Positions 25,192 to 45,031 of a stretch of 54,138 bases of DNA are shown one piece after another. The position numbers and the translations under genes are program-made. Within the stretch, counting starts at the first letter, position 1. The number at the start of each line of letters is the position of its first letter. Below the pieces are notes generated by a model. The model was not told where the DNA came from, did no database searches, and worked only from the letters and a program-made list of their open reading frames with translations. The DNA comes from a virus (Duplodnaviria; Caudoviricetes): IMG/VR virus record IMGVR_UViG_3300034062_004821, positions 1 to 54,138 of that record; one strand, given 5' to 3'.

Positions 25192-25228
25192 AAAAAAAGC
25201 GCCCGCCGGAGGGGGATCCGGCGAGCGC
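25192..25228 (-). terminator. Rho-independent terminator for 25259..25468
   Basis: 12-bp stem 25199-25228 followed by T7 on the minus strand. Confidence 0.8.
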
Positions 25229-25258: not shown

Positions 25259-25468
25259 CTACGATCGCCTTTGGAACAGGAAATTGTAAACGACGACCCA
25301 AACGGCCACGAGCGTTACGATGCTCATGAACGACGCAATGGGCTCGGGCGGGGTCAGCACACCCAGAAACACGACCGCAGCGTAGGCGACGATCAGGGAC
25401 CACAGGAGGGATCGGGCATTGCGCCAGAACTCCTTGCTGGTGAAGTCAGGCACATTGATAGACGGCAT
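25259..25468 (-). CDS. Two-TM small membrane protein (moron)
   Basis: AAGGAG RBS, two hydrophobic helices, own terminator. Confidence 0.7.
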   Translation of the reverse strand: MPSINVPDFTSKEFWRNARSLLWSLIVAYAAVVFLGVLTPPEPIASFMSIVTLVAVWVVVYNFLFQRRS

Positions 25469-25516
25469 GGGTTTCTCCTTTAGAGCTTCCGGGATGGAAG
25501 GTGGCTGTAACAATCT

Positions 25517-25559
25517 GTGATCTGGCATGCCATAGACTTGTCACGTATGGCATGCCATA
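25517..25559. promoter_or_regulatory. Operator pair TGGCATGCCA, copy 1
   Basis: Palindromes at 25523-25532 and 25548-25557. Confidence 0.75.
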
Positions 25560-25589: not shown

Positions 25590-26348
25590 ATGACCAATGC
25601 ACTCTTCAGCCGTGACGGACAGGCTCTTGAGCCGATCACCCCAGGCGGGCGCACAGGTATTGTTCGCAACAAGTGTCACCGTTGTGGTGGATTGGGCGGC
25701 GCTAACGCTTGGAAGCACACAGGATACACATGCTTCCGGTGCAATGGTTCTGGCTTTGAGCCCGCTCGCGAAGTGAGGCTTTATACCAGCGACGAGCTGG
25801 CCAAGCTCAATGCCAGAGCTGCTGCCAAGCGTGAAAAAGCCGCCGCCGCTAAACAGGCTGCTGCGGACGCAGCAAAAGCTGCTCGCCAAGAAATACTTGG
25901 GACCGATCCCCTGTATATCTATCTTGTCGCAAACGCTTCGCGTCACGATTTCCTGGCTTCAATGCTTCAAAAGATTGAAGTCAACGACCTGAGCGAAAAC
26001 CAGCGCGCCGCCATTGAAAAGTGGATAGCTGCAGATCACGCGCGCACGGCAAAAGTCGCTGCGGCAAAGTCTGCCGGACACCTCGGCACGATTGGATCCC
26101 GCGTCAAGATTGACGCCACCGTGACAAAGGCCACCTTTGTCAGCAAAGGCTATTCGTATAGCTCACCCGATCGGTATGCGATTACGGCTGTAACGGCAGA
26201 TGGCGCGGTTATTGTTTGGTTTTCCGCTTTCCGGGAAATTGGCTCGCGCATGATCGGCGCCGCCACCGTAGTCAAACACGACGATTACAACGGCATACCG
26301 CAAACGGTAATCAAGAACTTCCGCGCATCATTGCTAGAGGCTGCTTGA
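25590..26348 (+). CDS. Zinc-finger + OB-fold-like early protein
   Basis: CHRCGG..CFRCNGSG, LSENQRAAI, HLGTIGSRV..ATVVKHDDYNGIPQTVI. Confidence 0.8.
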   Translation: MTNALFSRDGQALEPITPGGRTGIVRNKCHRCGGLGGANAWKHTGYTCFRCNGSGFEPAREVRLYTSDELAKLNARAAAKREKAAAAKQAAADAAKAARQEILGTDPLYIYLVANASRHDFLASMLQKIEVNDLSENQRAAIEKWIAADHARTAKVAAAKSAGHLGTIGSRVKIDATVTKATFVSKGYSYSSPDRYAITAVTADGAVIVWFSAFREIGSRMIGAATVVKHDDYNGIPQTVIKNFRASLLEAA

Positions 26349-26356
26349 AATATTAC

Positions 26357-26397
26357 GTGATCTGGCATGCCATAGACGGACAGTGGCTGGCATGCCA
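26357..26397. promoter_or_regulatory. Operator pair TGGCATGCCA, copy 2
   Basis: Palindromes at 26363-26372 and 26388-26397, same 25-bp spacing as copy 1. Confidence 0.75.
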
Positions 26398-26427
26398 GAT
26401 ATCGCTGGTCAGCAGATGGAGACAGAA

Positions 26428-26613
26428 ATGCAAAACCGCGAAATCAACACTGGCAAGTATACTTTCGACGGGGACATGGACCGCCTTTGTGTTTGCGGCC
26501 ATCGCCTTGGTATCCACACCGCCGCTCGCGTTCACATTAACGGAAAAACTCACCAGCCTTGTGACCGCGGCTGCAAGTGCGAGTGCTTCAGACCAGTCAA
26601 AGGAAAAAGATAA
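26428..26613 (+). CDS. Small Cys/His zinc-binding protein
   Basis: CVCGHRLGIH...CDRGCKCECF; GGAG RBS. Confidence 0.65.
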   Translation: MQNREINTGKYTFDGDMDRLCVCGHRLGIHTAARVHINGKTHQPCDRGCKCECFRPVKGKR

Positions 26614-26792
26614 TGCCCCGCTCTGACGCTCAGATTAGAGCCGAACAAGCACGAGACGAAAAATGGGTCAACGTCCAGTTTCGCGTTACCACAAGTGAAT
26701 ATCAGAAGATCAAGAAAAAGGCCGGCGAGCAGGCGGTATCCGGCTGGGCCAGGGACAAGATCCGACAAGCCGCCGGCATCAAGACAGACTGA
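26613..26792 (+). CDS. Ribbon-helix-helix regulator
   Basis: VNVQFRVTTSEYQKIKKKAG..VSGWARDKI; TAATG coupling. Confidence 0.7.
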   Translation: MPRSDAQIRAEQARDEKWVNVQFRVTTSEYQKIKKKAGEQAVSGWARDKIRQAAGIKTD

Positions 26793-26795
26793 AAG

Positions 26796-26826
26796 GAGGG
26801 TGGGCTCAGGTCCGCTCTCAGCTTTT
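26796..26826 (+). terminator. Hairpin between convergent transcription units
   Basis: GAGGGTGGGC-tcag-GTCCGCTCTC followed by agctttt. Confidence 0.45.
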
Positions 26827-27090
26827 ACAGATGGAAGGATCAAACCCTGCCGGCCTGAGATGATCGCACTCACAGAACAGGACGTTGTTGTGATCGCCGA
26901 TCATCTCAGCTGTCTCCGCCGTCAAAACATCCTGCCTTGAGATCAGGATGGGCTTTGAGGCGCAGATCGCTGATCGCCAGATGGCATCCTCAGTCGCGAT
27001 AATGATACCCTGGGAGGGCTTGGGTGCCGTCTGGCAGCTCAACAACGGCATCGCGAGCGCGCACGCTGTCAGCCTGGCGTACAATTTCAT
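26818..27090 (-). CDS. o-spanin (Rz1-like lipoprotein)
   Basis: MKLYARLTACALAMPLLSC lipobox; overlaps the i-spanin 3' end; ISRQDVLT..HN motif. Confidence 0.75.
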   Translation of the reverse strand: MKLYARLTACALAMPLLSCQTAPKPSQGIIIATEDAIWRSAICASKPILISRQDVLTAETAEMIGDHNNVLFCECDHLRPAGFDPSICKS

Positions 27091-27286
27091 GGGTCGTCTC
27101 CGTAATTTGACGTGTGACGGCTGCCTCAACTTCGGCAGCCTCTTTGTCGCGCTGGTCCGTGACCTCCTTGCGCGCTCGGGCCTTCTCTTTTTCCACATAC
27201 GCAAAGCCCACCATGAGGCCGGCAATCGCGAGCCAGACCCAGCCGGGAATGCGCTGCAGGAAGCTCCAGACAGATGCCAACGTCAT
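26990..27286 (-). CDS. i-spanin (Rz-like)
   Basis: N-terminal TM then coiled coil; ATGA-coupled to the endolysin. Confidence 0.75.
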   Translation of the reverse strand: MTLASVWSFLQRIPGWVWLAIAGLMVGFAYVEKEKARARKEVTDQRDKEAAEVEAAVTRQITETTHEIVRQADSVRARDAVVELPDGTQALPGYHYRD

Positions 27287-28416
27287 CGCAGGGGCCTCGT
27301 CGCTTTGGCATTGCCCCACGCCTGAACAGCCTCGCCGACAAGCATGACGCAGAAGCCTCCAACAAATTCCATGACGAGCGGATCTGAGACAGCGCCCAGG
27401 AGCGCATTGCTGCCGGTGAACAGCATCCACCCGCGCCCGATCATTATGAGCATCAAGCCGTAGAAGCGTCGGCTCATCCACATGGCCTTCGCGCTGCTGG
27501 ACCACTCCTCAGCCTTGCGTGTCCCATCCACAGCGCCAGTCTGCTGCCCGATGGGCACGGGCGGATCGGGAAGCCTGGGGGGAGCCGGAATGCGAACCGG
27601 CGGTGGCGCAGGGGCCTGTACCACCGCCGGACCTGTAGCGATAACGGAAGGAGACGCACCGCTTTGCGCGACAGGTTTTTCTGGGGCAGGCGCCGCCGGA
27701 GGCTGGACAGGCAGAGGGGGGGATACCTCCGGCGGCTCCGCCACTGTGACGCTTGGGATCGCCACGGCAGGGGGTGGCGGCTCAGGCTCAAACAGGTGTG
27801 CCTCAGCCGCCTCAGTAGGGACCGCCAGTGGATATCGCTGCGCGACCCGAAGAACGTCCTTGAAAGGGGTTTTGTAGATGACCTTGTCCGTGCCCGGCAG
27901 GCTGACGGGAGGCTCACGCTTCAATGCTATCGCATCTTCCTCGCAAGCTTCGGTCCAATCATATCCCAGATAAAGGCACGCCTCACTGTAACGACGCCTG
28001 AGCAAGCCACGGTAAGCCTGCTTGTGCCCGCCCTGTGTGGCGTAGATCCACATGCCGAAAGCAGCAGCCGCATCATCCACACGGTTGGCATTGGTCTCGC
28101 GCAGCACTGTGCTTTTTGCAAAGTTCTCCGCCCCGATATTGTAGGCGAGGGCTACGAGTGCGGAGAACTGATGCTGGGTGACCGGCACAGTGAGAGCTGC
28201 TGACACCGCCTGCTCAAACACACCGAGGGCATGCCTGAACATCTCAAGGGCATAATCCTCTGTGCATGTCTCGCCGGACTGCACAGGCCTGCCATCAGGG
28301 TGGAAGGTCACCCCGTAGCTTAACTCCCACGCCCCTCCCTCACACAGCCTAGCCTTGAGGCGAGGAGCGCCTTCGAACTGCTGGATCAGTCGCAGGCCAT
28401 CATCGCAGGTTTTCAT
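27283..28416 (-). CDS. GH24 lysozyme endolysin with Pro-rich linker and C-terminal two-TM (holin-like) domain
   Basis: GLRLIQQFEG, QHQFSALVALAYNIG, STVLR, GLLRRRYSE; C-terminal hydrophobic pair. Confidence 0.9.
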   Translation of the reverse strand: MKTCDDGLRLIQQFEGAPRLKARLCEGGAWELSYGVTFHPDGRPVQSGETCTEDYALEMFRHALGVFEQAVSAALTVPVTQHQFSALVALAYNIGAENFAKSTVLRETNANRVDDAAAAFGMWIYATQGGHKQAYRGLLRRRYSEACLYLGYDWTEACEEDAIALKREPPVSLPGTDKVIYKTPFKDVLRVAQRYPLAVPTEAAEAHLFEPEPPPPAVAIPSVTVAEPPEVSPPLPVQPPAAPAPEKPVAQSGASPSVIATGPAVVQAPAPPPVRIPAPPRLPDPPVPIGQQTGAVDGTRKAEEWSSSAKAMWMSRRFYGLMLIMIGRGWMLFTGSNALLGAVSDPLVMEFVGGFCVMLVGEAVQAWGNAKATRPLR

Positions 28417-29894
28417 GCCGCAACCCCCTCATATCGATAGTCCTCAACCTCTGCCGTCGGCCTGCCGCTCGCATCGATCCGGATGGTCAGCGGGATGCGT
28501 GCTGATTGCGGCTCAGAAGGCTCGATCGGAACATCTACAGCCCAGAGGGGCTCGCACAATGCAGCCTTGTGCGCCTCGCCCTGCACCAGCCGGATGCTCA
28601 GCTCAAGCTGGCCGGGAGCGGCATTGGTGAGGGTGAACGTCTCCTCGAAAGGATAGCTCACTCCTTTGGGCACAAGCACTGTGGCCACGCCATTGAGGCT
28701 CTCCACACACAAGGCATGGCTGGTGATATCCGCTATTGTGATGTCAGCCCGCCTGCCTTCCACAATGGCTGCTTTGATCGCGGCGCCCATGGCCACGACC
28801 ATCTCGGGGCTCTCGTCCCGCTTGGGCTTTTTGCCGAAGAAGACCTGAGCGGCCTCCCTCACTGAGGGCACCCTGGTCATGCCCCCGACCAGGAGGACAT
28901 CATGCAGATCCGTCACCGTGAAATTGGGATCAGAGCGCCGCACATCCTGTATCGCCGACTTGCAGGCATTCAGCATCCGCTCGCGCAGGTCCGCTGTCAG
29001 CTCTTCCAGCACCGCCTGACTGATGGGGTAGTCCATATGCAGCGAGACACCGTCTTTGGTCCTGCCGATGTCGTCCACCTTGAACCTTGTGTCGGGCTTC
29101 TCTGAGAGCCGCTTCTTGACAGCCTCAGCGGTGATCAGCACCCGCTGCATGGCTGCGTCACGCACGGCAAGATCAACACCATGCTCGGTGCGCCAGAGAT
29201 TGACGATGTAGTCCGCTATTCGTCGGTCATAGTCAGAACCGCCCAGATCCCGGATGCCATTGGTGGTGAGCACATCAACAAGCCCGCCCCCGGTCTGCAC
29301 GATGCTGACATCAAACGTCCCACCTCCGAGGTCGAAGACCGCAATGCGCCTTGCCCTCTTGGCGTCGAACCCGTAGGCAAGGGCTGCAGCTGTTGGCTCA
29401 TGCATCAGCTCAACCTGAGAGAGGCCCGCCATGCGCGCAGCCTCCTCAACGCAGGCCCGCTGAGGTTGGGTGAAATCCGCAGGAACACAGATTACGGCGC
29501 CCGTCACCAGCTCCCCGTCCGGCAAGCGCAGGTTAGCGGCCTGCACAAGCGCATTGATCAGGAAGGCTGTGAGTTCGGTTGGGGAGTATGTGGACCCATC
29601 AGGCCCACGGAAATGCACCGTGCCATCAGGCCCAGCGCATGTCTGATACCCCTGCTCCTCGTCTTCGAGCCACCGTTCAGCAAGCCGGCGCTTGAAATGC
29701 CGGTAGCAGAAATCCGGGTGCTTGCGCCCCGCCTCGATGGCATCCTGCCCGACAAGAACCTGATCCCCCACAATAGTAATCACGCTGGGCATGATCGTCG
29801 TCATGCCTTCGCCGATCTCCACCATGCGGGCGCCGCGACCGTCCCAGTAGGACACGCAGCTGTTCGTGGTGCCAACGTCAATTCCAATCCACAT
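28413..29894 (-). CDS. dnaK: Hsp70/DnaK-family protein lacking the C-terminal lid
   Basis: GIDVGTTNS, VPADF, EPTAAALAYG, FDLGGGTFDVS, LGGSDYD, LLVGGMTRVP, VAMGAA; linker and SBD-beta present; 493 aa. Confidence 0.95.
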   Translation of the reverse strand: MWIGIDVGTTNSCVSYWDGRGARMVEIGEGMTTIMPSVITIVGDQVLVGQDAIEAGRKHPDFCYRHFKRRLAERWLEDEEQGYQTCAGPDGTVHFRGPDGSTYSPTELTAFLINALVQAANLRLPDGELVTGAVICVPADFTQPQRACVEEAARMAGLSQVELMHEPTAAALAYGFDAKRARRIAVFDLGGGTFDVSIVQTGGGLVDVLTTNGIRDLGGSDYDRRIADYIVNLWRTEHGVDLAVRDAAMQRVLITAEAVKKRLSEKPDTRFKVDDIGRTKDGVSLHMDYPISQAVLEELTADLRERMLNACKSAIQDVRRSDPNFTVTDLHDVLLVGGMTRVPSVREAAQVFFGKKPKRDESPEMVVAMGAAIKAAIVEGRRADITIADITSHALCVESLNGVATVLVPKGVSYPFEETFTLTNAAPGQLELSIRLVQGEAHKAALCEPLWAVDVPIEPSEPQSARIPLTIRIDASGRPTAEVEDYRYEGVAA

Positions 29895-29903
29895 GGCTCA
29901 TCC

Positions 29904-31115
29904 CTATTCCGCAGCCCGGCCCATCCCCATCGCATCGCGCGCAAGGAAGGACGGGATGACTATGAGACGCTCGGCTTTTGCTCGCTCTGCTGCCCTCAGC
30001 TGACCATTCCCAAGACCCCCTGCGCGCGATCGTTTCTGCTGAGGCGTCAGCACAGGTTCAGGGAGAGGCTCGGGCGCCGGTGAGGGCGGTGCCGGCTCTG
30101 GAGGCGCAATAACAGCCGGGGCAATGGGAGCAGCGGGAACCTCCATGACAGGCGGCTGCTCGATCCTGGCTCTCTGCGCAATCAGAGCGGCCATTTCGTT
30201 CTGGTGCCGGAGTTCGGCAAGCTCGTCTTCTCTCTGCCGATCCCGCGCTGCATTGGCCCCGGAGAGATCCGTGATCAGCGCCCAGAGGCTGAGGGAGCGG
30301 GCACCTTCGAGGACGCAGAGCATCAGGATCAGCCAGACCCATGCCCAGAAGGCATTGGCGGCGCGTTCCTGCTGCTCGATCTGAAGGAGCCTCTTATCGG
30401 TGGTAGCCTGCTGAACCGGGCTGGCCTGCCCCTGCATGAGGTTGTCTTCTCTCGCCTTGAGAGTTGCCAGTTCAGACTGGATCGCCTCGCCCCTCGCCCT
30501 CATGGCGCTTTCCGTCCTGTCCTGCCGGATGCCGTCCACAGACCCGAAATAAAGCCCTTGAGCGAGGAGGAGCGATTGCGCTTTGCTGATCCCCTCCGGG
30601 CTCATGGAGGCCATGAGCTGCTGCTCTGTGCGAAGCTCTGCGATCTGCGTGCGGACGCGCTCCAGCTCTCCGCCTGTGCTCGCTATGGCTGCCTGCTGAG
30701 CCTGCCCGAGGGTGCCAGCCTCCTCGCCGGCAAGAGCCGCCTTGGCTTCAAGGCTTGCTGCGCTCTCTGCAAACCGCTCCGGCCAGACGACCTTGGCCCC
30801 GTTTTCCGCATTGTGAACACCCACAGCTGCGAGGCCCAAAAAGATGAAAGCCCCAGCCACCTTCCGAAGCGTTGTGCTGGCTGTCAGCGTGCGGATAAAC
30901 GCCACTGTGGCAAGAAGCTCTGCACCCAGAACCGCGATGATCATGCCCACCGTGGGAAGGAAGCTCAGAACAGACCAGTGAGCCGTGGCCACAATGCCAG
31001 TTACAGCAAGGGATGCGAGGCCCATGGTGATGATGACGACTGCGAAGAGTGCGAACTTGCGTGTCGCATCCGCTTCGTTCTTGAACTCAAGGAACTTGCT
31101 CAGAAATCGGTTCAT
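29904..31115 (-). CDS. Multi-TM coiled-coil protein with PG_binding_1-like insert
   Basis: Three N-terminal TMs, coiled coil, AQSLLLAQGLYFGSVDGIRQDRTESAMRA, fourth TM, Pro-rich tail. Confidence 0.8.
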   Translation of the reverse strand: MNRFLSKFLEFKNEADATRKFALFAVVIITMGLASLAVTGIVATAHWSVLSFLPTVGMIIAVLGAELLATVAFIRTLTASTTLRKVAGAFIFLGLAAVGVHNAENGAKVVWPERFAESAASLEAKAALAGEEAGTLGQAQQAAIASTGGELERVRTQIAELRTEQQLMASMSPEGISKAQSLLLAQGLYFGSVDGIRQDRTESAMRARGEAIQSELATLKAREDNLMQGQASPVQQATTDKRLLQIEQQERAANAFWAWVWLILMLCVLEGARSLSLWALITDLSGANAARDRQREDELAELRHQNEMAALIAQRARIEQPPVMEVPAAPIAPAVIAPPEPAPPSPAPEPLPEPVLTPQQKRSRAGGLGNGQLRAAERAKAERLIVIPSFLARDAMGMGRAAE

Positions 31116-31132
31116 TGCCCCTGCCCCGATGG

Positions 31133-31540
31133 TTATTGAATGCCGAAGATCATTCGGCTCGCCGCGAAGAGTGATCCGACGTCTTTTGCCAGTAGGACGA
31201 TGAGCAGGGCCACGCCCATGCGGGCATAGAGCACCATGGTCTTGCGCTGCTGAGTGGCGCGATCTTCTTCCCGCTTCACCTGCTCTGCGGCATGCTCTTT
31301 GAGGGCGTCCCTCATTGCGTCGGAAAACGCCATCTTCATCTCTGTGCGAAGCTCGCCCATAGCTCTCTCCCTCTCCTTGCGGACCTGGATCATCACTCTG
31401 TTCAGCTCGTCGGCCAGCATGCCCTTGTTGACCGTGCCGGACTGCGCCACTTTGAGCATGGCGATCTCAACGGTCAGGGCCGCGAAGCGCTCAAGATATT
31501 TTTCGGTGTCGGCCAGCCTGTCCCGCAGATGCTCTGTCAC
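31133..31540 (-). CDS. Coiled-coil protein with C-terminal TM (holin/anchor-like)
   Basis: Helical N-terminus, single C-terminal TM; in the lysis region. Confidence 0.65.
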   Translation of the reverse strand: MTEHLRDRLADTEKYLERFAALTVEIAMLKVAQSGTVNKGMLADELNRVMIQVRKERERAMGELRTEMKMAFSDAMRDALKEHAAEQVKREEDRATQQRKTMVLYARMGVALLIVLLAKDVGSLFAASRMIFGIQ

Positions 31541-31554
31541 TGTCGCCCCCCATT

Positions 31555-32259
31555 TCAGATTTCCCCGAGACGCGCGAACAGGCCGAGCAGGTATTCAATC
31601 TGCTGCTCGCGGACGAGATCCTCACCCACCATCCCGCGCGCGTTCCGCAGCTCGGCCAGTTCAACATTCAGAAGCTCAGACAGCCTGCGCCGGGATGTGC
31701 CCCGTATCGCTCTCACAGCATCTTCAAGGTGACGAGAAGAGCCGGGGGGATTGTCCACGACCATCTCAAGCAGGTCCTCGACCTCAAGCAGGTCCTCACC
31801 CGCCCTCACCGCATCAATCCTGGCCTTCAGCTCCTCCAGAGGGCCGAGCAGAACCTCTACAGAATTGTATACTGGCTCCGCCGCTTCAGATTGAGGCTCA
31901 GGCACGGTTTCGGGAGGCGGGGCGTCCGGTGCATCCTCGGCAACCGAAGGCGCTGCGGGCTCATCTTGGGCCTCCAGGGCCGCAAGCCTTGCCTCCAGAA
32001 GGGCAACGCGGGAGGCGCAGGAGCATGTCCCTCCCTCTGGCCGTGTTGCAGGCAGATCGATGTCATGGACCTGCTTGGTGATCAGCCGGACATCCTCTCC
32101 GGTGACATCAATGGTCCTGCCTGAGTGCAGGAGCCATCTCTGGGGATCGGAGGAATACGGATCCAGCCTCCCAAGCGTGGCGCCGTCCTGGTGCCTGTGG
32201 AAGGCGTATCGATCGCCTCGCAGGAAGAACTGATCGGGTCTGTGTCGAAGGCGGCGCAT
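31555..32259 (-). CDS. Hypothetical protein
   Basis: GGAG RBS; RVALLEARLAALE coiled coil, acidic Pro linker. Confidence 0.7.
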   Translation of the reverse strand: MRRLRHRPDQFFLRGDRYAFHRHQDGATLGRLDPYSSDPQRWLLHSGRTIDVTGEDVRLITKQVHDIDLPATRPEGGTCSCASRVALLEARLAALEAQDEPAAPSVAEDAPDAPPPETVPEPQSEAAEPVYNSVEVLLGPLEELKARIDAVRAGEDLLEVEDLLEMVVDNPPGSSRHLEDAVRAIRGTSRRRLSELLNVELAELRNARGMVGEDLVREQQIEYLLGLFARLGEI

Positions 32260-32276
32260 GGCGTCTCCGGGCAATG

Positions 32277-32309
32277 AAAAACCCCGCATCCTTTCGGAAA
32301 CGGGGCTTT
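32277..32309 (-). terminator. Rho-independent terminator ahead of the lysis/Hsp70 module
   Basis: Minus strand CCCCG..TCC-GAAA-GGA..CGGGG-TTTTT. Confidence 0.6.
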
Positions 32310-32345
32310 GGGGATGGATGTAGCGTGTGTTAAGAGCGAAGTTCA

Positions 32346-32567
32346 GTGATCGGGGGTGGTGAGATGAAGAAGTTTCTTGGCGGCGAAATGTTCATTTCGG
32401 CCATGGCGATGACGCTCTTCATGGGCCATGTAGAGTTGTTTTTGGGTCAGGGTCGCGTCAACCAGATCGTCATTGGCATGGTAATAACCGTGAGCGCGTT
32501 TGGCCTTATTCTTGGTCTAAACCTTGCTGCCACGCCATCAAGGCACAGGCGGAGGCGGAGACTTTGA
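32346..32567 (+). CDS. Small two-TM membrane protein (convergent)
   Basis: Two hydrophobic segments and a basic tail; start maybe at MKKF. Confidence 0.5.
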   Translation: MIGGGEMKKFLGGEMFISAMAMTLFMGHVELFLGQGRVNQIVIGMVITVSAFGLILGLNLAATPSRHRRRRRL

Positions 32568-35500
32568 TTTCCGCGATCCGGACTTGAAATAATCAAGAAG
32601 CGCCTGAAGCCCGAAGCCCTGCACCTTTTGGCTTTCAACCGGCGGCGGAGCTTTAGGTTTACGTGGACCGCGTGGCTTTGGCGGCGGTTTGGTGCTGGCT
32701 ATATACTGCTTGAGCGCAGCCTGCTCCGTCGCAGCCGCCACGATGTTGGGCTGCGGCTTGGCGTAAGCCGCTCCCAGTGATCCAATGATACGACCGCCAG
32801 CGACACCCATGCCAAGACGCTGCAGCAGCGTGTAATTCGCCACAGCGTTCTTGGCATCCTCAACACGCTTGTATGTCTCGTCGCTGGGATTGTCTTTCCA
32901 GGCTCTCTCAGCTTCGACGAGGTCCTTGTTAGCCTTGTCAATAAAAGGCTGCATGACGGCGGCTTCACCGCCAGAACCCAGAATCCAAGCAAGGTCTTTG
33001 CCTTTGACATAACGGGTCAACTGCTTCCAGAGATTGTCGTCCTGAAACAACTCATCTGCCGGCCTGGCATTGGGATTTGGCTTCCACTTGCCAACGCTGT
33101 CCTGCAAGAATGGAAGCTCATCCTTTTTAGCTCCACCCTTTTGCCACAGCTGATTGAGATTCGCCGGCCTGCTTTCATCAGCCCTGTTAAGCATCCCGGT
33201 GACCTCTTCCTTTGAGATCGGGGTGATCAGGCGATTTAGCTTTTGCGATGCCGCCTTCGCACCAGCGACGGAAGCTTTGGCGGCTGACCCGCGCATATAC
33301 TTCAATCCGAACCCGGCAAGAACGCCAGCCATAGTAGGCCCGTACTCACGAGCAGCCTCAATAAAGAAATTTGGACGGTTTCTCTGCAGGGCGTCACGCT
33401 CCATCAGGACCTTCACCTGCCCCTCAGCTTTATTCAGACGCTCATTGGCCGCGTTAAGCCTCTCCTCAATATTTGCTTTGAACTCCCTGATCGCCTTTCC
33501 GCTCAGAGTTTCTCTACCGCTCGAAAGGGACAGTATGCCATCTACACCTGTCGGTCCGAGATTGAACCCTTCCCGAGCCAGGCGTCTCTGCAGTTCCTTG
33601 TTGTCTGCTGTGCGGAAGAAGTTCTGATCCGCCATCAGCCCTTCAATCTCTTTGTTGAGCTGAGCAATCTTCGCCATTTCCGCCTGAAGCTGCTGCTCGA
33701 TTTCTGACGAGCTGTCGGCCTCCGCTTCACCAGCCATTGCGCCCAATGCACCGCCAATAGCACCGCCACCGATCATGCGGCCAATGCTGGAAGAACCAGG
33801 CGGTCCCTTGGGGCCCTTGCCAAGGCGTTGTGCTGGAGGCGGGGGACCTCCGGGACCAGAAGCGATAGGCGGAAGCGATCCGCCCCCGCTTTTGAGGGCG
33901 GGGGCGGCTGAACTCTCAAGCATTTGCTTGGCTAAAGACACAACGTCCGGCGGTAACTTCGCGAGCACTTCCTCTTCTCGCGCAATTGATCTTTCAAAAA
34001 CTCCAACAGCAACTCGTTCGTCAGATGTAATTTCTGATTTGCCTAAAAGGGCATCAAGACGGGCGCGCGAACTGGAAATCGCACTTAGACTTTCAGCCGC
34101 CTGAATAACATCCCTATCAGCCAGTGCTTTTGAAAAATCCGGGTCGAGCGTTCCAACGTGCCTAACTGGTCGAATTGATGGGTAGCCGTCTGAGTCTTTT
34201 CCGACCACCTTACCCTCGTATATGTGGCCTTCAAAATTTTTCCCACTTTTCACAAAAGGAGAATTATACTCCCCAAGTCTACGCGCCAAATACGATCGCG
34301 ACCATCCACGTTTCAGTTCAACAGCAGATAATCCGTCATGCAGCAGACCTGTCTGATAGTCTTTGCTTTTCGCGCCTGCGCGCATGTCAAACTTAGGCCC
34401 GTTTGACCAGCGTATAAAAAGCGGACCTTCTGCGGATGCAATTAATTTTTCTACGTCGGCTAACTTTAGCATCCGCTCACTCTGCCCAATCTCAGATGAG
34501 TCATCAAGCCGGCTTGCCGTCGGAGGCCCTTTCACGGGCGGCGGCTGAACTGGCTCCTGCGTAGCCATTGCAGATGACTTTGGAGGGCCAAGACTGCTCT
34601 CCTGAGGGCCACCTATCATGCGGACGATCTGCTGGTCATCGGGAACGTCCTGCGTAGTCCAGGGAGGATTTGCGCGCCTTTCGTAGGGCGTCATATTCCT
34701 GCGTATCTGTACGTTGCGGGCTTCTACCTCTCCGGCAAGGCGGCGGTAGATGTCTCGTGCAGCGCTTTCCTGAGCCGCCCTGCTAAGAGGGTGGTATGGG
34801 TCCTTCCGGGCCTCGCGGATGTCCTTCACCATGCCATTGTACTGACGGCGCACTTCGGATTTCGGTACGCCTGCAAACGTCGGGTTCGCCGCAAACTGCT
34901 CATAGGTCGGAGGCGTCAGCTGACGATCGACCTGACGCATCCATTCCGGACGTAGTTCGTCACTCATGTAAGCGCTGCTTGGCGACCCGCCAGCGGCAAA
35001 GCCTTCCAATTCCTGTATGGCGTGCTGGTTCTCATGCAGGGCGGTTGATTTGACGCCTCCAGCTCCAAATCCGCGACTGCGAAGGCTGATCATGTCAGCG
35101 CCAGGATAGAACGCTCCGCTGCGACCCGTGTTGGGGTCCTCCACCACCTGGATGTCACGGGATGTCGGATAAGCTGCGTAGGCATCCTCATGTTCCAGAA
35201 CATTGCCGAGAGATGTGGTCCGACCCTCCTCAGGCATCCGATCAAGACGGAAGCCGGACTTGCTGTCATCGATCTCGAAGCGCCATTTGCCATCACGGCT
35301 CCTTCCCCAGCCAGTCTCACGCCAGATCTGGTCACGGCCACCGCCAGCCTTTTCCATCTGCTTGGCAATTCCAAGAAGACGCTTGTCAGCGGTCTTGGCG
35401 TTCTCTCCACCAAATGTGCGTGTGGTCGCCCCGTCAGGAACCGCGCCCCTGCCAGAAGCATTGCGCGCCCGGGCGAGGCCTGCAGCCGTAAGACCGCCAA

Positions 35501-38500
35501 GCCCGTACAGGCCAGCCGTCATCCCACGGTCTGTGTCGTCGATCGCTCCGTCATCGTTGAAGTCCTGCGGCATGGCATAGCCATAAGCTGCAGCGACCGC
35601 CCCTGTGGCAGCCTGCGCTCCTGCTCCACCTCCGGGGAAGGCAGAGAGGGTTGTGCGCGGACCTTTTGCGCCCTGAGAAGGAGGGCCTTTGATACGATCT
35701 ACCGGCGCTTGACTGGTCGGGGGTTGCGTTTCCAGTCCGCTTCCCTGGCCCGATCTTCCAGCATTTGATCCCACGCTTCCTGATCGTCTTCTGGCATCAA
35801 TTCTGGACTGTCCTTTGGCGACTGCGCCATCGATCCTGGCGCGGCTGATCCCAAGCTTCTCGGCGTGCTCAATGGCTGCGTTAAGGTAGTCGGGGGCCTC
35901 TTCATCGACATATCCCTTTGCAATCCTGGCGTCGTCAACGACCTTGGCGCTGTCATAAAGCAGCTTTTCCGGATACCACAGAAGCGCCTGCAAGTCAGCC
36001 ATGGTAAGGTCAGGATAGTCCTTTTTCAACATTTCCAGCGCGGTGGTCATAACCTCGCGAATCTGGCGGCGCTGAGCAGGGCCGGATGGCTGTTCAATCT
36101 GCCCATCCAGATACTTCCACAAACCGTTTCCATTCTTTCGCAGCTCGTCGCCAAGAGAAAGTCGCTGTTTCCCCTTGGGCGGCGCGCCAAGCAGTGCGTC
36201 AACTATTGGGCGACTGTTGTGACCCAATACGCCAATATCTGCCATGCGATCGCGCAAGGCAGGATCCTGTGACGCTTTCCGAATTGCGTAAGCCACGTCG
36301 TCAATCGCAGATACCGAAAGACGACGACCAATAATCGCTTCAAACTCCCTCTTGTCAGAGGGATCCATCATGTTGATCAGACCGGACAGATGATCGCGCT
36401 TGGCAATTATCATATCCTTGTTTTTTTCAATCAGTTTGCCTGTCCAGCGACCCCAGGTCCGCATGAACCATCTGTCTATCGTTAGCTGACCGAACTCTCC
36501 GTTCAGGTTCATCAAGAACCCGTTGCCGATTTTTGGCCCGAAGATTCCGGCTCCAAAGACTTCTTCATCGGCACGCTCGGCAATCTTGATGCCAGTCAGC
36601 TCTTCAATTTCTTTCACCGTGCGCTTGGTCGTGATGATATCGCGCAGTTTGTCGATGCCGTGCCTGTTCAGCAGCTCATTGAACAGATCAAGAGAGTCAT
36701 TAATGGCCTTTTGCGCCTCTCCAGCCTTGATGTTGGTTGGCATGCGTCCATTTCCTTTGAACGCCTTGTACGCCTGCTCGGCCAGCTCAAAGTTTTTACC
36801 GACTTTCTGACCGTTCGAAGTAATCGCGAGAGCAACGGTAAATGCAAAACGAGCGTTTACGTCAGTTGCCAGCTCAGGATGGACTTCCTCCATCACAGAC
36901 ATGGCCTTGGTAACCTTGTCATCGTACCAGCCAATGGCGTTCTTGTTGGTGCGAATTGCCTCAATGGCGTCGGCCAGCGCAACGCGAGCGATGTACTCTC
37001 GGGTTGCTTTTGTATCCTCCGAAAGGTCTACACGCGCAGCCCTAGATCTGGCGCGGAAACGCTCATCAAGGGCAACCTTCAGATCTCTGTTAGTGTTGAA
37101 AGGGCGCTCTGCAGCAAGTGATTGAGCCGCTTTAAGGTTTGTCACTTCATCAATGATGGCAGGAACGGGACGACCGGCTGGAAGCTGTCCGTCAAATGTC
37201 TTTCCTGACGCCACATCATCCATAAAGCTTTCGATTTGGGTGCGGGTTGTTTGCCTTTCCGCCGGAAACCTGCGGAAGAAAGCGTCCTGCTCAGCCTTGA
37301 ACAAGCGAACCCCTTTTTTCTCAAGGGCTTCAAGCATCTCACGCCCCTTCGCTCGCTCTGGAAGATCGTCAATCAACGAGGAGGCCCGCGCTCCCACGCT
37401 ATTGCGAATGTTGGCCGCTTCCTGGCGACGAGCGCCGCCCAGCCCCATCGTGCGGGGACCCATGCGCGGCCCTGCAGGCGGAGGACCTTTGCGCCCCATG
37501 CCGGGCATAAGGCGACTGGCGGCAGCGCCACCAATGCCGCCGGAGATCATGCCGCCCATGACAGACGCAGCACGCTCATTAGCGCTGATCTGGCCATCAC
37601 CATCGGAATCATAGGGCGCGACAGCGCCTGCAGTGCCGCCAGCAACTGTTCCTGTAGCAACAGGGCTTCTGCCCATGCCGGAAAGGATGTTGGGGCTTCT
37701 GGAAGCGCCTGGGCCGAAAGCGGCGTTGACGGAGCGGATGTTGGAGGGGTCGAAGATAACAACTTCACTATCAGTTTCAATGCCCGCGTAACCACGCTTC
37801 TTGAGAATTGGGGTTACTCGTGCGTTTATGACATCGCTAGTAACATCATCCGCAACTTTTGCGCTCTCTTGTTCCCAAATCTTAGACCATTCATCTTCGC
37901 TCGCGATGCGTCCACGCACATAAACAGGCATCACGTTTGCGCCTTGGCCGCGCGCATATTCTGATGCGAGGTTAGGGCTTTTTGCGAAGTAAACGCCAGG
38001 ACCTAGAGATCCGTCTTTTGTGATTTCAAATTCATCAATCTTTTTCGTTGTCCCATGATACAGCGGCGTCTTGACATCAAACCCCATCTTCTGCGCACGG
38101 GCCATGCGTCCTTCCTGCGACATGTCCAGGCCCTTCTCGCGGGCGCGCACCCATTCCTGCGCTTCGCCGATGTCACGGCCTGCATAGCCCTGTGACTGAG
38201 CCTGCTGAACTGCACGAGCGCCGGCAGGAGACGATCGACCGCCAAAGCCCATGGTGTCGGGAGCGCGGTCGGCCTCATACCTGTCTACTTGCCTGAGGTA
38301 GTCCTGGTACGCATCCCACTCTTCGCGAGCGCCTATGCGGTAGCTGGGATCGCCGCGAAACTCTTCGTCAATCAGACGCATTAGTGTGTTGGCGTCTTCC
38401 GGATCGACATCAAATCCTTCCGAGTAAGCCCTGCGTGCAAGCAGATCCAGCGCTGTGCCGGACTTGTTGTTCAGGAGACCGGGATATGCATTGGCGCGCC

Positions 38501-41500
38501 CCATGATGGCTTTGAGATCGCCAGTCATGTAGTTCGTGTCCTTGATGCCTCCCTGAGAGCGGATCCAAGCCAGCAACGATTGCGGCTTCTTGGGACGCGG
38601 ACCCGTCCATTCCGGAACCTCAGGCGCTCCCTGAGCAGGGAATGGAATGTCCCCAACATCACGGGCCTGCGGGGCGGCGACATCATCCGCCATGCCGGCT
38701 GTATCGACGAAGTCATCCGCAGCAGACGCTGTGGCGCCTCCGGACGCAGATGAGGGAGGCGGGCCTCCGGATGTGCCGGGGCCAGCAGACGGGCCTCCAG
38801 ATCTACGCGGAGGGGGTCCACGCCGGGAAGGACGCGGAGGACCGCCACGGCGACCACGAGGGGGGAATATCCGCGCCAGGTTCTCCGGCGTTGCGCCTTC
38901 CAGAAGCATCTGCCCCATGAGATCGCGCTGGGCTTCTGAATATGCTCCAGCCTTAGACAACCATGAAAGCCCGGCTTCAGTGGGATTGCGCAATGCCCGA
39001 ATTGCAGCGACTGCGTCTGCAGCAAAGCCGCCACCTCCCATCAAGGCCTGTCCCGTTACAGACCCCACATTTGGATTAATGCGGCCAGCATTCTGCATAA
39101 TTGCAGCATCGGCTTTGAAACGCGCCTGCATCGCGTCAGCTGCTTCCTGCCCGAAGACAGCTGCAAGCTTCTTATTGGCGGATGAACTGGAAAGGGCCTG
39201 AACAGCGCCGCGTGTGTTCTGCGCCTTAGCCACCATTGACCTAATCACGCCAGCCTGGAGCGCTGTCAGTGGACGATCTGTGATGCCAGTAACGATGCGC
39301 GTCACATCTTCAAGAATATACCTGCCTTCGAGAAGACGCTGACCTTTCTCAAAATCCGCCTTCATTATTGGCGCTTCGCCGCCGGCTTTGCGGGCCGCTG
39401 CGTATTCCGGCATAAGCTGGTCCAGCTCTCTCACAAAGGCCGAGCGCGCCTCTTCTATCTGCCGGATCTGAAGGTCATCCATCGATGCGCCGGGGCGCGC
39501 AATGAGCTTTTGCTCCGCCGCATCCATGTTGCGCTTGATGAGATCCATGATCTCGAAGTCTGTCAGCTGACGGCCTGTGGTCTGCCTCACTGTGGTGGCG
39601 TAGGCGTTCGCAGCCTCGACATGCGGACGCATAACATCCATGTCCAAAAGTACACGCAGACGCGGGCTGTCCAGCTCAGGATAGTTAGCTCTCAGCGCGT
39701 TATACGCCGGGGCTGCCTGCTCCCGGGCGGCTTGGATCATCTCATCAATGTTACCCGTAATCGTGCCCGGGTTCAGGTTGGGGTTTGCAGACGCTATATC
39801 GCGCTCAAGTCGGCCCTTTTGAGCGTCCCCGAGTTCTTCGTATCTTATTCTTGCCTTTCCGGGCGTTTCTCCTGGAAGTCGTGACAAGCCCGCCGCTTTG
39901 TTAATTCCCTCCTGAGTTAGGTCAGCTATCGTTGAGGGTTTGTCCCCGAAACGCATAGCCATAGCCGCAGCAGCCTCGTCAGCATTTGTTATGCCGACGT
40001 TACGAAGATCTCGCCGTATAGCTCCCGCTACAATTCGTTCATCATAACCACGTGGATTAAATGGACGCCCTACTGTCCGAGCAACCTGGCCGGCAAATCG
40101 ACGCCCAATGCGAGGGATAGCCATACCAATGGCTCCGCCAACGCCTGCTCCCACAGCTGGATTGCCTTCAGGATCTGTCTCGTTTTCATCAGCAGCGTTT
40201 GCTTCGCCAACTCCACCAAGATAGGCGCCAGCGCCTCCGCCAAAGATTGTATCAGCGTTTCTGGATATAAAACCACGACGCGGAGGAAGGGGTTCTGGCG
40301 CCGCACTGAACGGTGCTGGCGCAGCCCGAGCAGAAGCCGGATCAGAGGCTGCCCCTCCGCGCGGCATTTCAGGCTCGGGAACTGGCTCCTCAACAGGCTG
40401 CGGCTCCTCCTGCCGGCCAGCAGGCGAAGGACCGGGTTCTGGCCTTGGCGGCGGGCTGAACCGTCCTGCCCTGATCGATGCGACGATCTCGTCAGCAGAC
40501 ATGCCAGCGTCCTGCAAGCCCTGCACAATGGCGCGCCGCTGTTCCTCAGACATCGCGTTGTAGGCTTCGCGAGGATTGCGCGGAGGCGGAGCTGAGGGCT
40601 GCGGACGAACGCGAGCCCCGCCTGCGTTTGTTGGAGTAAGGGAAGGATTGATGGCTCTGTTGACAGCCTGAGCGCCACGAACAGCTGCCTGAGGAGCCAG
40701 AAATGGTCCGCTTAGCGTCAGATCTTCAAGAGCATTCTTCAGTCGTCCTACAAATTGCGAGTCTTCAGGCTGAGTCTTTAGAAATGCCGCATAATCCCGA
40801 AGAGGACCCTCTGGGATGGCACTCAGATCCAGCATGTCGGCAACGCGACCAGTCGATCCGTCAAAACCCAAGCCGACAGCGGCTGCATCTTTGCCAAACT
40901 GCGCGCCTAAACCTCCTCCAGGGGCCATCTTTCCAATAGCGCCGCGAGCAAAAAGGAATTGCGCAAGACCTTGCGTAAGAGCTCCAGTTCCTGACTCCAG
41001 TTCCTGAGGAAGAGGAATCTTGTAGGTATCAATTCGCGGAATGACATCTTGGCCGCGAAAGTGATTGTACGCATCAATTGGAAAGTTAGCCGTTGCCTCA
41101 AGCGCCATTGACGCCGCATTGGCTATGTTGATTGGCGCGGCTGTTATGCCTTTTCCAATATCGCGATCGACAGATGTTCCAGTTTGCAGAAGACCCCGAT
41201 CGTCCTGGGTAACGGCCATATCCATCAAGGCGCCATAGCCGCGCGAAGCTTCACGCAACTCTGCGGCATCGCGCTCCTGACGCTGTTTGATAGCCTGCTC
41301 TCTTACAGAGATTGCGGGATTTGCTGTCCATGCGTCTCCAAAACGAATGTTCCCTTGCGCAAGATTTCTGGCCGCATCCACATCCTGCCGGCGTGTCTGA
41401 TCAAAGGCGCTTACACGCGCCATGCGATCAGCTTCCTGCTGCTGGCGCTCCGGTGTCAGACGGTTGAAATCAGCGTCCGACATGAACGGTCTATTGTCTG

Positions 41501-42080: not shown

Positions 42081-42083
42081 GTG

Positions 42084-45030: not shown

Positions 45031-45031
45031 G

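Follow-up and report, generated by a model that had tools for sequence, protein, structure and literature searches.

A lidless Hsp70 gene beside the gene of a membrane-anchored endolysin in an uncultured lake-water phage

Why should a phage place the gene of an ATP-dependent chaperone among its lysis genes? The question is raised by a locus of an uncultured lake-water phage (Duplodnaviria; Caudoviricetes), IMG/VR record IMGVR_UViG_3300034062_004821, the whole 54,138-nt stretch of which is referred to here as the window. The initial annotation, made from the sequence alone, described a 493-aa Hsp70 with all ATPase motifs, located between a membrane protein and an endolysin, and proposed an ATP-dependent lysis-timing or envelope-remodelling system in which the Hsp70 holds or releases the membrane-tethered endolysin or the 403-aa membrane protein, or alternatively a dedicated chaperone for the giant ejection protein. 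Re-examination of the reading frames and coordinates shows that this observation is correct. The proposed interpretation is supported only in part, as the gene order is conserved while a role in lysis is inferred from membership of the module.

The features of the locus are summarized in Table 1. Related loci, retrieved from IMG/VR and metagenomes, are designated by L and a number, and the 403-aa protein is termed mem403.

Table 1. Features of the window around the Hsp70 gene, with the supporting observations
Coordinates (strand)	Feature	Length	Description and observations
32538..42080 (-)	Polyvalent giant protein (context)	3180 aa	Upstream of the cassette on the same strand; Pfam LPD23 2.3e-19, ART-PolyVal 1.2e-13, DUF6098 3.1e-12
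31555..32289 (-)	p244	244 aa	Conserved helical C-terminal ~75 aa, variable N-terminal half (alignment of 10 sequences); no family hit
31133..31540 (-)	Tail-anchored coiled-coil protein	135 aa	Single C-terminal TM helix; homologues or positional analogues of 135-153 aa with a C-terminal hydrophobic helix (by hydropathy) upstream of mem403 in L001, L002, L003, L166, L168, L172, L173, L179, L181 and L013; no family hit
29904..31115 (-)	mem403, polytopic inner-membrane protein	403 aa	Three N-terminal TM helices, long helical region with a weak PG_binding_1-like stretch, fourth TM helix, coiled coil, proline-rich linker, conserved C-terminal tail (..R.RAGGL..AERLIVIPSFLARDA..AAE) (alignment of 22 homologues); no Pfam, PHROG, NCBIfam or PADLOC family; AF2 pLDDT 70.7, all helical, residues 383-390 extended; Foldseek against PDB, 0 matches at E <= 0.001; 9-nt spacer GGATGAGCC before the Hsp70 ATG
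28413..29894 (-)	Lidless Hsp70	493 aa	Nucleotide-binding domain, linker and beta substrate-binding domain; stop overlaps the lysozyme start (ATGA, 28416-28413)
27283..28416 (-)	Endolysin		GH24 muramidase domain, conserved extension (..KTPFKDVLRVAQRYPL), Pro/Ala-rich linker, two C-terminal hydrophobic helices; Pfam Phage_lysozyme (PF00959) E 4.9e-30, 104.9 bits against 22.3; PHROG endolysin 5.6e-34
26990..27286 (-)	i-spanin	98 aa	Most likely start ATG 27286, an ATGA overlap with the lysozyme stop (the automatic ORF runs from GTG 27505); N-terminal TM helix, periplasmic coiled coil; homologues in related loci
26818..27090 (-)	o-spanin	90 aa	From MKLYARL (the automatic ORF runs from TTG 27225); lipobox LLSC; overlaps the i-spanin gene at 26990-27090; phrog_1275 Rz-like spanin 1.8e-08
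25259..25468 (-)	Holin candidate	69 aa	Two TM helices; homologues right after the spanins in L001, L002, L003, L172, L178 and L180; no family hit
25199..25228 (-)	Intrinsic-terminator-like hairpin		12 pairs, 10 G-C, T-run; ends the minus-strand late gene row

The Hsp70 lacks the helical lid and belongs to a clade of short proteins

Membership of the Hsp70 superfamily is established by the Pfam profile PF00012, which matches with an E-value of 1.8e-102 (cut-off 20.6 bits) over model positions 2-477 of 599. The residues D6, G8, K68, E166, D188, G190 and D195 of the ATPase domain are invariant, and T193 is nearly invariant, in 48 aligned family members. The protein aligns to DnaK residues 5-476 of PDB 9dvi (E 6.6e-82), through ..IDANG. 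The AF2 model (pLDDT 91.9, pTM 0.90) contains beta strands at 386-488 with pLDDT above 85, and the best PDB folds are docked DnaK states, namely 7kzu (TM 0.93), 5nro (0.91) and 4b9q (0.90). In contrast to DnaK, the whole alpha-helical lid is absent, a point that had been missed in the initial annotation; the protein ends 16 residues after the ..IDASG motif, and no helix follows residue 378 in the model.

Identity to DnaK is 36-40% over a protein of 493 aa against about 635. The scores fall below the NCBIfam cut-offs for DnaK (NF001413, 360.4 bits against 648; TIGR02350, 351.3 against 822.55) and for HscA (NF003520, 285.7 against 620; TIGR01991, 283.7 against 708.55), and no HscC model appeared among the NCBIfam hits. 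The family also carries its own insertion motif, W..xE[DE]xGxQ..GPDG..GP. The positions aligned with DnaK R167/N170, which contact the J-domain, read E/H here. In agreement with the initial annotation, neither DnaJ (PF00226) nor GrpE (PF01025) was found at E <= 0.001 in 46 other ORFs, or at E <= 0.01 in the seven cassette proteins and the giant protein, ten structural ORFs having been scanned against PHROGs only.

Such genes are rare among sequenced phages: 54 of 50,697 GenBank phage records have any match to this Hsp70, none above 36.5% identity. In a homology search, 41 listed homologues of 408-519 aa at 41-100% identity were followed by a jump to cellular DnaK of 634 aa or more at 40% or less, and a further search revealed many additional proteins of 475-525 aa at 35-46%. 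In a FastTree of 88 rows, a clade of 51 rows made only of short proteins has a support of 100 and holds 51 of the 57 short rows, including the window, L011 and L013.

The gene order is conserved and the membrane protein tail follows the Hsp70 tree

Conserved synteny with endolysins had been named in advance as the test of the proposal, with random contexts as its refutation, and the test comes out strongly positive: for the loci that were retrieved the contexts are not random. Besides the window, 47 distinct loci carry the gene. Of the 42 distinct loci found from the Hsp70 side, 30 of 30 with at least 1500 nt downstream have the lysozyme, 25 within 200 nt and five at 723-849 nt. Likewise, 29 of 31 with at least 1300 nt upstream have mem403 directly upstream by tblastn, and the other two (L186 and L013) have a polytopic protein of the same build with a related tail. 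The gaps examined hold HNH endonuclease-like ORFs; in some loci HNH genes on the opposite strand split the Hsp70 from the lysozyme, so tight translational coupling is not essential. Of the 22 loci found from the lysozyme side, 20 have mem403 and Hsp70 upstream, one is cut at the contig end and one is an unrelated weak hit.

The order extends to L013, whose Hsp70 is only 37% identical and sits on the other side of the basal split of the clade. This locus has a tail-anchored protein, a 446-aa membrane protein, the Hsp70 (with an ATGA overlap), a lysozyme with C-terminal TM, and then a spanin-like protein. Synteny inside a group of related phages is nevertheless expected from common descent alone; even L013 shares the order of giant protein followed by cassette and is not a fully independent genomic context, and the contexts read cover only three branches of the 51-row clade, namely the window family, the L011 type and the L013 type. 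No terminator-like or sigma-70-like site stronger than chance lies inside the block on the minus strand, and a strong terminator follows the holin candidate.

The spanin genes have the arrangement of a two-component Rz/Rz1 type spanin, overlapping and placed after the endolysin. The endolysin carries two C-terminal hydrophobic helices, so that the initial annotation was right to describe it as membrane-tethered. All 24 aligned clade lysozymes keep the three-part architecture of SpmX of Caulobacterales (10.1101/418723), with an N-terminal GH24 muramidase, a proline-rich middle and two C-terminal TM helices, and the catalytic glutamate E15 is invariant in the 24 sequences. The NCBIfam SpmX model (NF051871, LysLocSpmX), however, matches only the muramidase part (E 7.6e-21, profile positions 13-149 of 430), with 74.8 bits against a cut-off of 700, and no phage homologue of the SpmX TM segments is reported in that study. 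The “PG-binding-like insert” that the initial annotation saw in mem403 is only a sub-threshold resemblance: PG_binding_1 (PF01471) gave E 0.061 and 14 bits against a cut-off of 23, over profile positions 3-36 of 57, when the 81-aa segment was scanned alone, and there was no hit with the whole protein.

Which neighbor is inherited together with the Hsp70? On an IQ-TREE of 39 Hsp70s, the type of the mem403 C-terminal tail (5 states, 32 labelled) needs 4 changes, which is the minimum. The lysozyme C-terminal class needs 15 (7 states, minimum 6) and the lysozyme N-domain type needs 8 (3 states, minimum 2). The N- and C-parts of the lysozyme are thus exchanged repeatedly against the Hsp70 tree, which argues against a specific pairing of Hsp70 and endolysin, and the tail never is. 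L231 and L216 have identical Hsp70 and tail but different membrane-protein N-parts and lysozyme C-classes, while L011 and L018 keep mem403 at 79-83% identity but differ in both the Hsp70 (36%) and the tail (ARNRVLILADRS). The tail abuts the Hsp70 gene, and physical linkage alone favors co-inheritance; the contrast with the equally adjacent lysozyme N-domain weakens this objection but does not remove it. Of the two clients proposed, the evidence points to mem403, specifically its tail, as the co-inherited partner, and no particular endolysin fills that role.

Prediction of a complex between the Hsp70 and mem403 residues 340-403 gave weak support, with a score of 0.57 (runs 0.57, 0.56 and 0.57) against a best control of 0.00. 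The mark was reached by 58 of 80 solved complexes and by 2 of 110 mismatched pairs; at 0.60 or under it was reached by only 7 of those 80, and by both mismatches that passed. The score is in the band where passes are more often wrong than right unless the guess was likely beforehand. The runs agree in at least 71% of contacts and the partner pLDDT is at least 49, although no interface was reported and, as DnaK-peptide complexes are solved, the pass may reflect likeness only.

A possible role at the membrane and the alternatives

We tentatively favor the following explanation. The gene encodes a real, probably ATP-hydrolysing Hsp70 that has lost its lid, belongs to a large phage-borne clade of ~475-525-aa lidless Hsp70s, and is one fixed part of a conserved late gene block that runs from p244 to the holin candidate. 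Its dedicated partner would be mem403, the cytoplasmic C-terminal tail of which ends in a short extended hydrophobic segment flanked by charged residues (ERLIVIPS, ERLLVIGP, NRVLILA), of the kind that lies in the Hsp70 beta-domain groove. The segment resembles the DnaK model peptide NRLLLTG, a likeness that was not computed. The tail would hold the chaperone at the inner membrane, or be its regulated client. From there the Hsp70 most likely acts on the membrane proteins of the lysis block, which are made post-translationally; it could keep the C-terminal hairpin of the endolysin and the tail-anchored protein insertion-competent, or hold the membrane protein or endolysin inactive until release. 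That would make it an ATP-dependent accessory of lysis without a phage-encoded J-protein. The analysis demonstrates the identity of the gene, the loss of the lid, the conservation of catalytic residues and gene order, the translational coupling, and the congruence of tail type with the Hsp70 tree. Binding of the tail in the groove, recruitment to the membrane, the holin function of the 69-aa protein, and any effect on endolysin or lysis, including lysis timing and envelope remodelling, are inferences, made with no experimental or expression data and no RNA run listed.

Two alternatives are considered unlikely to about the same degree. In the first, which is not excluded and which the initial annotation had also raised, the Hsp70 is a dedicated folding or unfolding chaperone for virion proteins, above all the giant multi-domain ejection protein, which must be loaded into the capsid and later pass the tail channel; mem403 would be another ejected or assembly-related protein, and adjacency to the lysis genes would only reflect the end of the late operon. 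A giant gene lies upstream on the same strand in the window, in L002 (C-terminal end) and in L013 (at least 1254 aa, unrelated sequence), and L003 has a partial match to the giant protein of the window. The closest cultured relatives by major capsid protein (36-41% identity), Rhizobium, Sinorhizobium and Sulfitobacter podophages of 40-44 kb, turned up in neither the Hsp70 search nor the mem403 search. Closteroviruses use an Hsp70h in virion assembly. Nevertheless, the Hsp70 is never adjacent to the giant gene, as three genes, and in L002 and L003 also tail-fibre genes, lie between them, whereas mem403 or its analogue and the lysozyme flank it in the loci with enough flank. The congruence of tail and Hsp70 points to the membrane protein as partner, and mem403 has no PHROG structural or ejection match.

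In the second, mem403 and the Hsp70, with the tail-anchored protein and p244, form a separate membrane-located device for superinfection exclusion, host envelope or division takeover, or ATP-driven gating of a channel, which merely travels next to the lysis genes. mem403 is the most conserved protein of the block, with 62-86% identity in most loci where the Hsp70 is 46-62%, and only its tail co-varies with the Hsp70, while lysozyme and spanin variants are exchanged independently. The weak PG_binding_1-like stretch, although below threshold, hints at a periplasmic contact. Against this, start/stop overlaps tie the Hsp70 to the lysozyme and spanins, the order is kept at 37% Hsp70 identity, no PADLOC model matched any of six cassette proteins, and no promoter-like site sets the block apart.

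A general proteostasis helper taken from a host dnaK, boosting folding capacity late in infection without a specific partner, is very unlikely: although the best cellular hits are alphaproteobacterial DnaK at 38-40% identity and jumbo phages are reported to carry DnaK and DnaJ acquired from hosts (PMC12619734), lid loss is fixed in the whole clade, divergence from DnaK is deep, no J-protein was found in the scans described above, the gene position is strictly fixed in the loci read, and the gene co-varies with the tail of a neighbor.

Relation to known chaperones and lysis proteins

Specialised Hsp70s work at membranes through a dedicated membrane protein encoded or acting alongside them, as in E. 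coli HscC with tail-anchored DjlC, mitochondrial Hsp70 with Tim44/Pam18, and BiP with Sec63; HscC also has a shortened C-terminus. Those partners use a J-domain or a Tim44-type tether. In the phage no J-domain is detectable, and the proposed contact is a client-like C-terminal tail.

The statement in the initial annotation that Hsp70 is not a recognised lysis component agrees with the literature searches made, although accessory lysis proteins of other kinds are known. Gp1 of mycobacteriophage Ms6, a chaperone-like protein encoded immediately upstream of lysA inside the lysis cassette, is reported to assist endolysin delivery; it is a small protein with no ATPase and is unrelated to Hsp70. The releasin gp25 of phage Mu (PMC9239132) is a membrane-tethered cytoplasmic accessory protein that controls a membrane-bound endolysin, showing that lysis cassettes can hold such regulators. 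gp25 is a DUF2730 protein with an N-terminal TM helix and acts on an N-terminal SAR anchor, whereas here the anchor is C-terminal and the candidate regulator is an Hsp70 with a polytopic partner. M4Lys of phage BSPM4 (PMC7143992) shows that a C-terminal TM domain can be essential for lysis by an endolysin; it has a different catalytic domain and is reported to lyse without holin or Sec.

In a more far-reaching view, which we regard as unlikely on present evidence, the lidless Hsp70 and mem403 would form an ATP-powered control unit of phage lysis, of a kind not yet described. The chaperone, parked on the tail, would hold or insert the C-terminally anchored endolysin and perhaps the tail-anchored protein, and host ATP status, not only proton-motive force, would then set the moment of lysis. 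The same phage lineage would also be the source of the complete three-part protein that Caulobacterales domesticated as SpmX.

Phage lysis of Gram-negative hosts is explained by holins, endolysins and spanins, plus a few small regulators, and no energy-consuming chaperone is part of that picture. Here an Hsp70 without a lid has kept its catalytic residues across a large, diverse clade, and has kept one fixed place between a membrane protein and a membrane-anchored endolysin in a block small enough to clone, so that the question is directly testable. The SpmX-type architecture carried in full by these phages bears separately on how Caulobacterales acquired their polarity factor. If the Hsp70 acts in lysis, it would be a new class of lysis accessory and a natural example of a minimal, J-protein-free, lidless Hsp70 working at a membrane, which is of interest for Hsp70 mechanism as well.

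Genome context and gene order of the cassette

The window is a complete 54,138-bp IMG/VR virus record, rated 100% complete by CheckV, and represents a temperate podovirus-like genome. The portal, terminase, major head protein, tail and ejection proteins and the polyvalent giant protein are all encoded on the minus strand, while an integrase lies on the plus strand. The two ends of the record form a direct repeat and the portal gene runs across them; the genome is thus circularly closed or terminally redundant, although the record is classed as linear. The giant protein carries LPD23, an ADP-ribosyltransferase of polyvalent proteins and DUF6098, and near its C-terminus it has a motif that resembles the weak PG_binding-like stretch of the polytopic membrane protein encoded downstream. 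The coordinates of the features discussed here are summarized in the table.

Coordinates of features in the window and in related loci
Sequence	Coordinates	Strand	Feature
Window	1-174 and 53965-54138		Terminal direct repeat of 174 bp, 99.4% identity
Window	2-1936 and 53564-54136	-	SU10-type portal gene, running across the ends
Window	25259-25468	-	69-aa two-TM protein, holin candidate
Window	25259-25528	-	Stretch listed for the two-TM holin candidate when compared with related loci
Window	25590-26792	+	Three ORFs of 252, 76 and 71 aa, resembling an inserted block
Window		-	o-spanin lipoprotein, overlapping the i-spanin gene
Window	27286 (most likely start, ATG)	-	i-spanin
Window	27283-28416	-	377-aa GH24 lysozyme with two C-terminal hydrophobic helices
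Window	28413-29894	-	493-aa Hsp70
Window	29904-31115	-	403-aa polytopic membrane protein
Window	31133-31540	-	135-aa tail-anchored coiled-coil protein
Window	31555-32289	-	244-aa protein
Window	32346-32567	+	Small ORF with two hydrophobic helices and a very basic C-terminus, between the giant gene and the 244-aa gene
Window	32538-42080	-	3180-aa polyvalent giant protein
L173	10198-11001		HNH homing-endonuclease-like ORF
L180	10767-11333		HNH homing-endonuclease-like ORF
L220	12334-12900		HNH homing-endonuclease-like ORF
L215	1432-2196		HNH homing-endonuclease-like ORF
L244	2226-2999		HNH homing-endonuclease-like ORF
L178	4114-4836		HNH homing-endonuclease-like ORF
L196	2484-3182		HNH homing-endonuclease-like ORF
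L013	4088-4822	-	244-aa membrane protein on the strand opposite to the cassette
L018	3053-3241		Small two-TM ORF opposite the cassette

The Hsp70 stop overlaps the lysozyme start (ATGA), the lysozyme stop likewise overlaps the i-spanin start (ATGA), and nine nucleotides separate the stop of the membrane protein from the Hsp70 start. The initial annotation, which described an Hsp70 chaperone built into a phage lysis module, is therefore confirmed in its observation, with three corrections. The Hsp70 has no lid; the "PG-binding-like" insert assigned to the membrane protein is only a sub-threshold resemblance (E 0.061); and the likely holin, the 69-aa two-TM protein, lies further down, just before a strong terminator. 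This holin candidate follows the spanins directly in six related loci (L001, L002, L003, L172, L178 and L180), whereas in the window the three plus-strand ORFs separate it from them. The 244-aa protein is modular: its C-terminal ~75 residues are conserved in all 10 aligned homologues, while the N-terminal half occurs in at least three unrelated versions. A BAG- or GrpE-like role for this protein was considered as a hypothesis only. The small plus-strand ORF upstream of it may be a moron or a chance ORF, and a similar-looking small two-TM ORF is present in L018, a locus recovered from IMG/VR.

A lidless Hsp70 from a phage clade

The Pfam HSP70 family matches the protein at 1.8e-102, but only to model position 477 of 599. 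The alignment to solved DnaK runs from residue 5 to 476 and stops inside the beta substrate-binding domain. The AlphaFold2 model, built with a 48-row alignment, has a pLDDT of 91.9 and a pTM of 0.90 and shows no helix after residue 378; its best structural matches are docked DnaK states, namely 7kzu (TM 0.93), 5nro (0.91) and 4b9q (0.90). The catalytic residues are invariant across the family, and the protein falls far below the NCBIfam cut-offs for DnaK and HscA. No J-domain or GrpE family was found in the 54 phage ORFs scanned against Pfam. Two J-domain contact positions of DnaK, R167 and N170, read E and H here in the alignment to solved DnaK.

A word-indexed protein search listed 41 proteins of 408-519 aa at 41-100% identity, followed by a jump to cellular DnaK of 634 aa or more at 40% identity or less. 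The database protein listed as the window's own (P0001), shown as 100% identical, differs from the window's translation at two residues, positions 70 and 80; near-identical variants of this phage therefore circulate. An exhaustive profile-free search of 1.84 billion representatives found 38,381 proteins at E <= 0.001, and many further proteins of 475-525 aa at 35-46% identity were among the best 150. Ten of these were looked up; all are metagenomic, and three have members on contigs of 56-64 kb. In a FastTree of 88 rows, 51 of the 57 short sequences, including the window's family, form one clade with support 100 that sits apart from DnaK and from the longer proteins.

GenBank phages hold no Hsp70 closer than 36.5% identity, and those matches are mostly DnaK of jumbo phages or host DNA in the records. 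The DnaK and DnaJ homologues of jumbo phages are described as host-derived (PMC12619734). GenBank phages also hold no homologue of the polytopic membrane protein, no DNA match to positions 26000-46000 of the window, and only the muramidase domain of the lysozyme. All sequences of the family are metagenomic. A search of 151 genomes from the alphaproteobacterial order of a Caulobacter metagenome-assembled genome, one of them flagged as unpublished, gave, among the matches examined, only DnaK-sized frames of 577 aa or more, except for two cut at contig ends, with a best score of 443 bits; no prophage copy was seen among these. A search of genome contigs with the Hsp70 alignment returned mainly cellular DnaK and does not speak to absence of the gene from bacterial genomes. 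The stretch 26800-32300 is represented, at half or more of its sampled words, in 11 DNA runs labelled lake-water metagenome, three of which may be the source while the others come from separate studies; this is only a pointer to a freshwater habitat. No RNA run was listed.

Conserved neighbourhood and candidate partner of the Hsp70

A family-specific degenerate DNA pattern found 14 family loci among 16 matching stretches in IMG/VR, and at least 41 in metagenomes, counted among 80 of 90 matching stretches. Three more (L011, L013 and L018) were recovered when the results of an IMG/VR scan with the Hsp70 alignment, otherwise dominated by cellular DnaK, were read again by ORF length, and five more came from a search that started at the lysozyme. 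After duplicates were collapsed, there are 47 distinct loci besides the window. Of the 42 found from the Hsp70 side, all 30 with at least 1500 nt downstream have the lysozyme, 25 within 200 nt and 5 at 723-849 nt, and 29 of 31 with at least 1300 nt upstream have the membrane protein by tblastn. The two exceptions, L186 and L013, carry a polytopic protein of the same build with a related C-terminal tail. From the lysozyme side, 20 of 22 loci have the membrane protein plus Hsp70 upstream; one is cut by the contig end and one is an unrelated weak hit.

The larger gaps that were opened, in seven loci (L173, L180, L220, L215, L244, L178 and L196), hold HNH homing-endonuclease-like ORFs of 188-267 aa with repeated Cys-His zinc motifs and an HTH. 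These are inserted exactly at the junction of membrane protein and Hsp70 or of Hsp70 and lysozyme, on either strand, and the L173 copy matches HNH_3 at E 6.6e-05. They may drive the frequent exchange of lysozyme variants.

L013 is the most informative locus. Its Hsp70 is 37% identical to that of the window and sits on the other side of the clade's basal split, and its membrane protein is no longer BLAST-similar. The order is nevertheless the same: tail-anchored protein, 446-aa membrane protein, Hsp70 (again with an ATGA overlap), TM-anchored lysozyme and spanin-like protein. L013 also has a different giant protein upstream, so it is a distant cousin rather than an unrelated genome type. The 244-aa membrane protein on its opposite strand looks like a shortened version of the polytopic protein, with N-terminal TM helices, a coiled coil, a late TM helix and a basic tail ending in ..AAKA. 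These contexts cover only three branches of the lidless clade, and most of the 51 rows are not represented in the counts; searches for related loci with two further proteins, P0124 and P0269, found nothing.

The membrane protein is the best conserved protein of the block, at 62-86% identity where the Hsp70 is 46-62%. It consists of three TM helices, a long helical region, a fourth TM helix and a coiled coil, a variable proline-rich linker and a conserved C-terminal tail. An ESM Atlas search with this protein returned only unnamed viral clusters, a Foldseek search with its model gave 0 matches at E <= 0.001, and PADLOC gave none. By the positive-inside reading of the sequence, the tail is cytoplasmic. 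It contains a short hydrophobic stretch flanked by charges, which AlphaFold2 leaves extended (residues 383-390), and it resembles the kind of peptide that Hsp70s bind, such as the DnaK model peptide NRLLLTG.

Five tail types occur, ..[VI]PS[LF].., ..VIGP.., ..VGDW.., ..LILADRS.. and the L013 type. Their distribution was compared with that of other traits on an IQ-TREE of 39 Hsp70s, from which loci with an Hsp70 ORF under 450 aa were left out. Tail type (5 states) needs 4 changes, which is the minimum of 4. In contrast, the lysozyme C-terminal class (7 states, minimum 6) needs 15 changes, the lysozyme N-domain type (3 states, minimum 2) needs 8, and the N-terminal class of the membrane protein (2 states, minimum 1) needs 4, although two of the "other" labels in this last trait may be truncation artefacts. 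Two metagenomic loci, L231 and L216, have identical Hsp70s and tails but unrelated N-parts of the membrane protein and different lysozyme anchors. L011 and L018 keep the membrane protein at 79-83% identity, but both the Hsp70 (36%) and the tail have been replaced. Since kin share labels and the tail abuts the Hsp70 gene, this is not proof of co-evolution; still, the lysozyme N-domain abuts the other end of the gene and is exchanged freely.

The predicted complex of the Hsp70 with residues 340-403 of the membrane protein gave weak support, with a score of 0.57 against a best control of 0.00. The mark was reached by 58 of 80 solved complexes and by 2 of 110 mismatched pairs; at 0.60 or under it was reached by only 7 of those 80, and by both mismatches that passed. 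The runs agree in at least 71% of contacts, and partner pLDDT is at least 49. Since DnaK-peptide complexes are solved, the pass may reflect likeness only.

The membrane-anchored endolysin and a possible role in lysis

All 24 aligned lysozymes of the clade have a GH24 domain, a conserved extension, a Pro/Ala-rich linker and two C-terminal hydrophobic helices flanked by basic residues, with at least three different TM-anchor classes among them. This implies a cytoplasmic catalytic domain tethered to the inner membrane. A KTPFKDVL..RYPL segment of the lysozyme is conserved. It is also the three-part build that defines SpmX of Caulobacterales (10.1101/418723), although the NCBIfam SpmX model matches the muramidase part only, far below its cut-off. 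The same preprint states that no homologue of the SpmX TM segments was found and that phage muramidases were "occasionally" fused to other TM segments; a phage clade with the whole build therefore bears on whether SpmX was taken over whole.

M4Lys of phage BSPM4 shows that a C-terminal TM domain can be essential for endolysin-driven lysis (PMC7143992), and the releasin of phage Mu shows that membrane-tethered cytoplasmic accessory proteins can control membrane-bound endolysins (PMC9239132). E. coli DnaK/DnaJ is involved in targeting tail-anchored membrane proteins (PMC6794478). In the most likely mechanism, the lidless Hsp70 would be held at the inner membrane by the tail of the polytopic protein, or would cycle on that tail, and would there handle the post-translationally inserted membrane proteins of the lysis block or keep one of them inactive until release. 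The analysis itself establishes the identity of the genes, the loss of the lid, the intact catalytic set, the fixed gene order, the start/stop coupling and the congruence of tail type with the Hsp70 tree. Binding of the tail, recruitment to the membrane and any effect on lysis are inferred, as is the holin function of the 69-aa protein. The interpretation offered in the initial annotation, an ATP-dependent system of lysis timing or envelope remodelling, is partly supported, while lysis timing and envelope remodelling themselves remain inference.

We regard the full mechanism as tentative, somewhat less likely than not, whereas the narrower claim that the tail of the membrane protein is the specific partner of the Hsp70 is more likely than not. 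A chaperone for the giant ejection protein or for virion assembly, and a separate membrane device merely adjacent to the lysis genes, are both possible but unlikely, to an equal degree. A general proteostasis helper is very unlikely.

Specialised Hsp70s with membrane partners and lysis cassettes with accessory proteins are each known, but no description of an Hsp70 in a phage lysis cassette was found in the open-access papers and preprints searched. The finding, which is related to both of these kinds of system, is real, recurrent and unusual.
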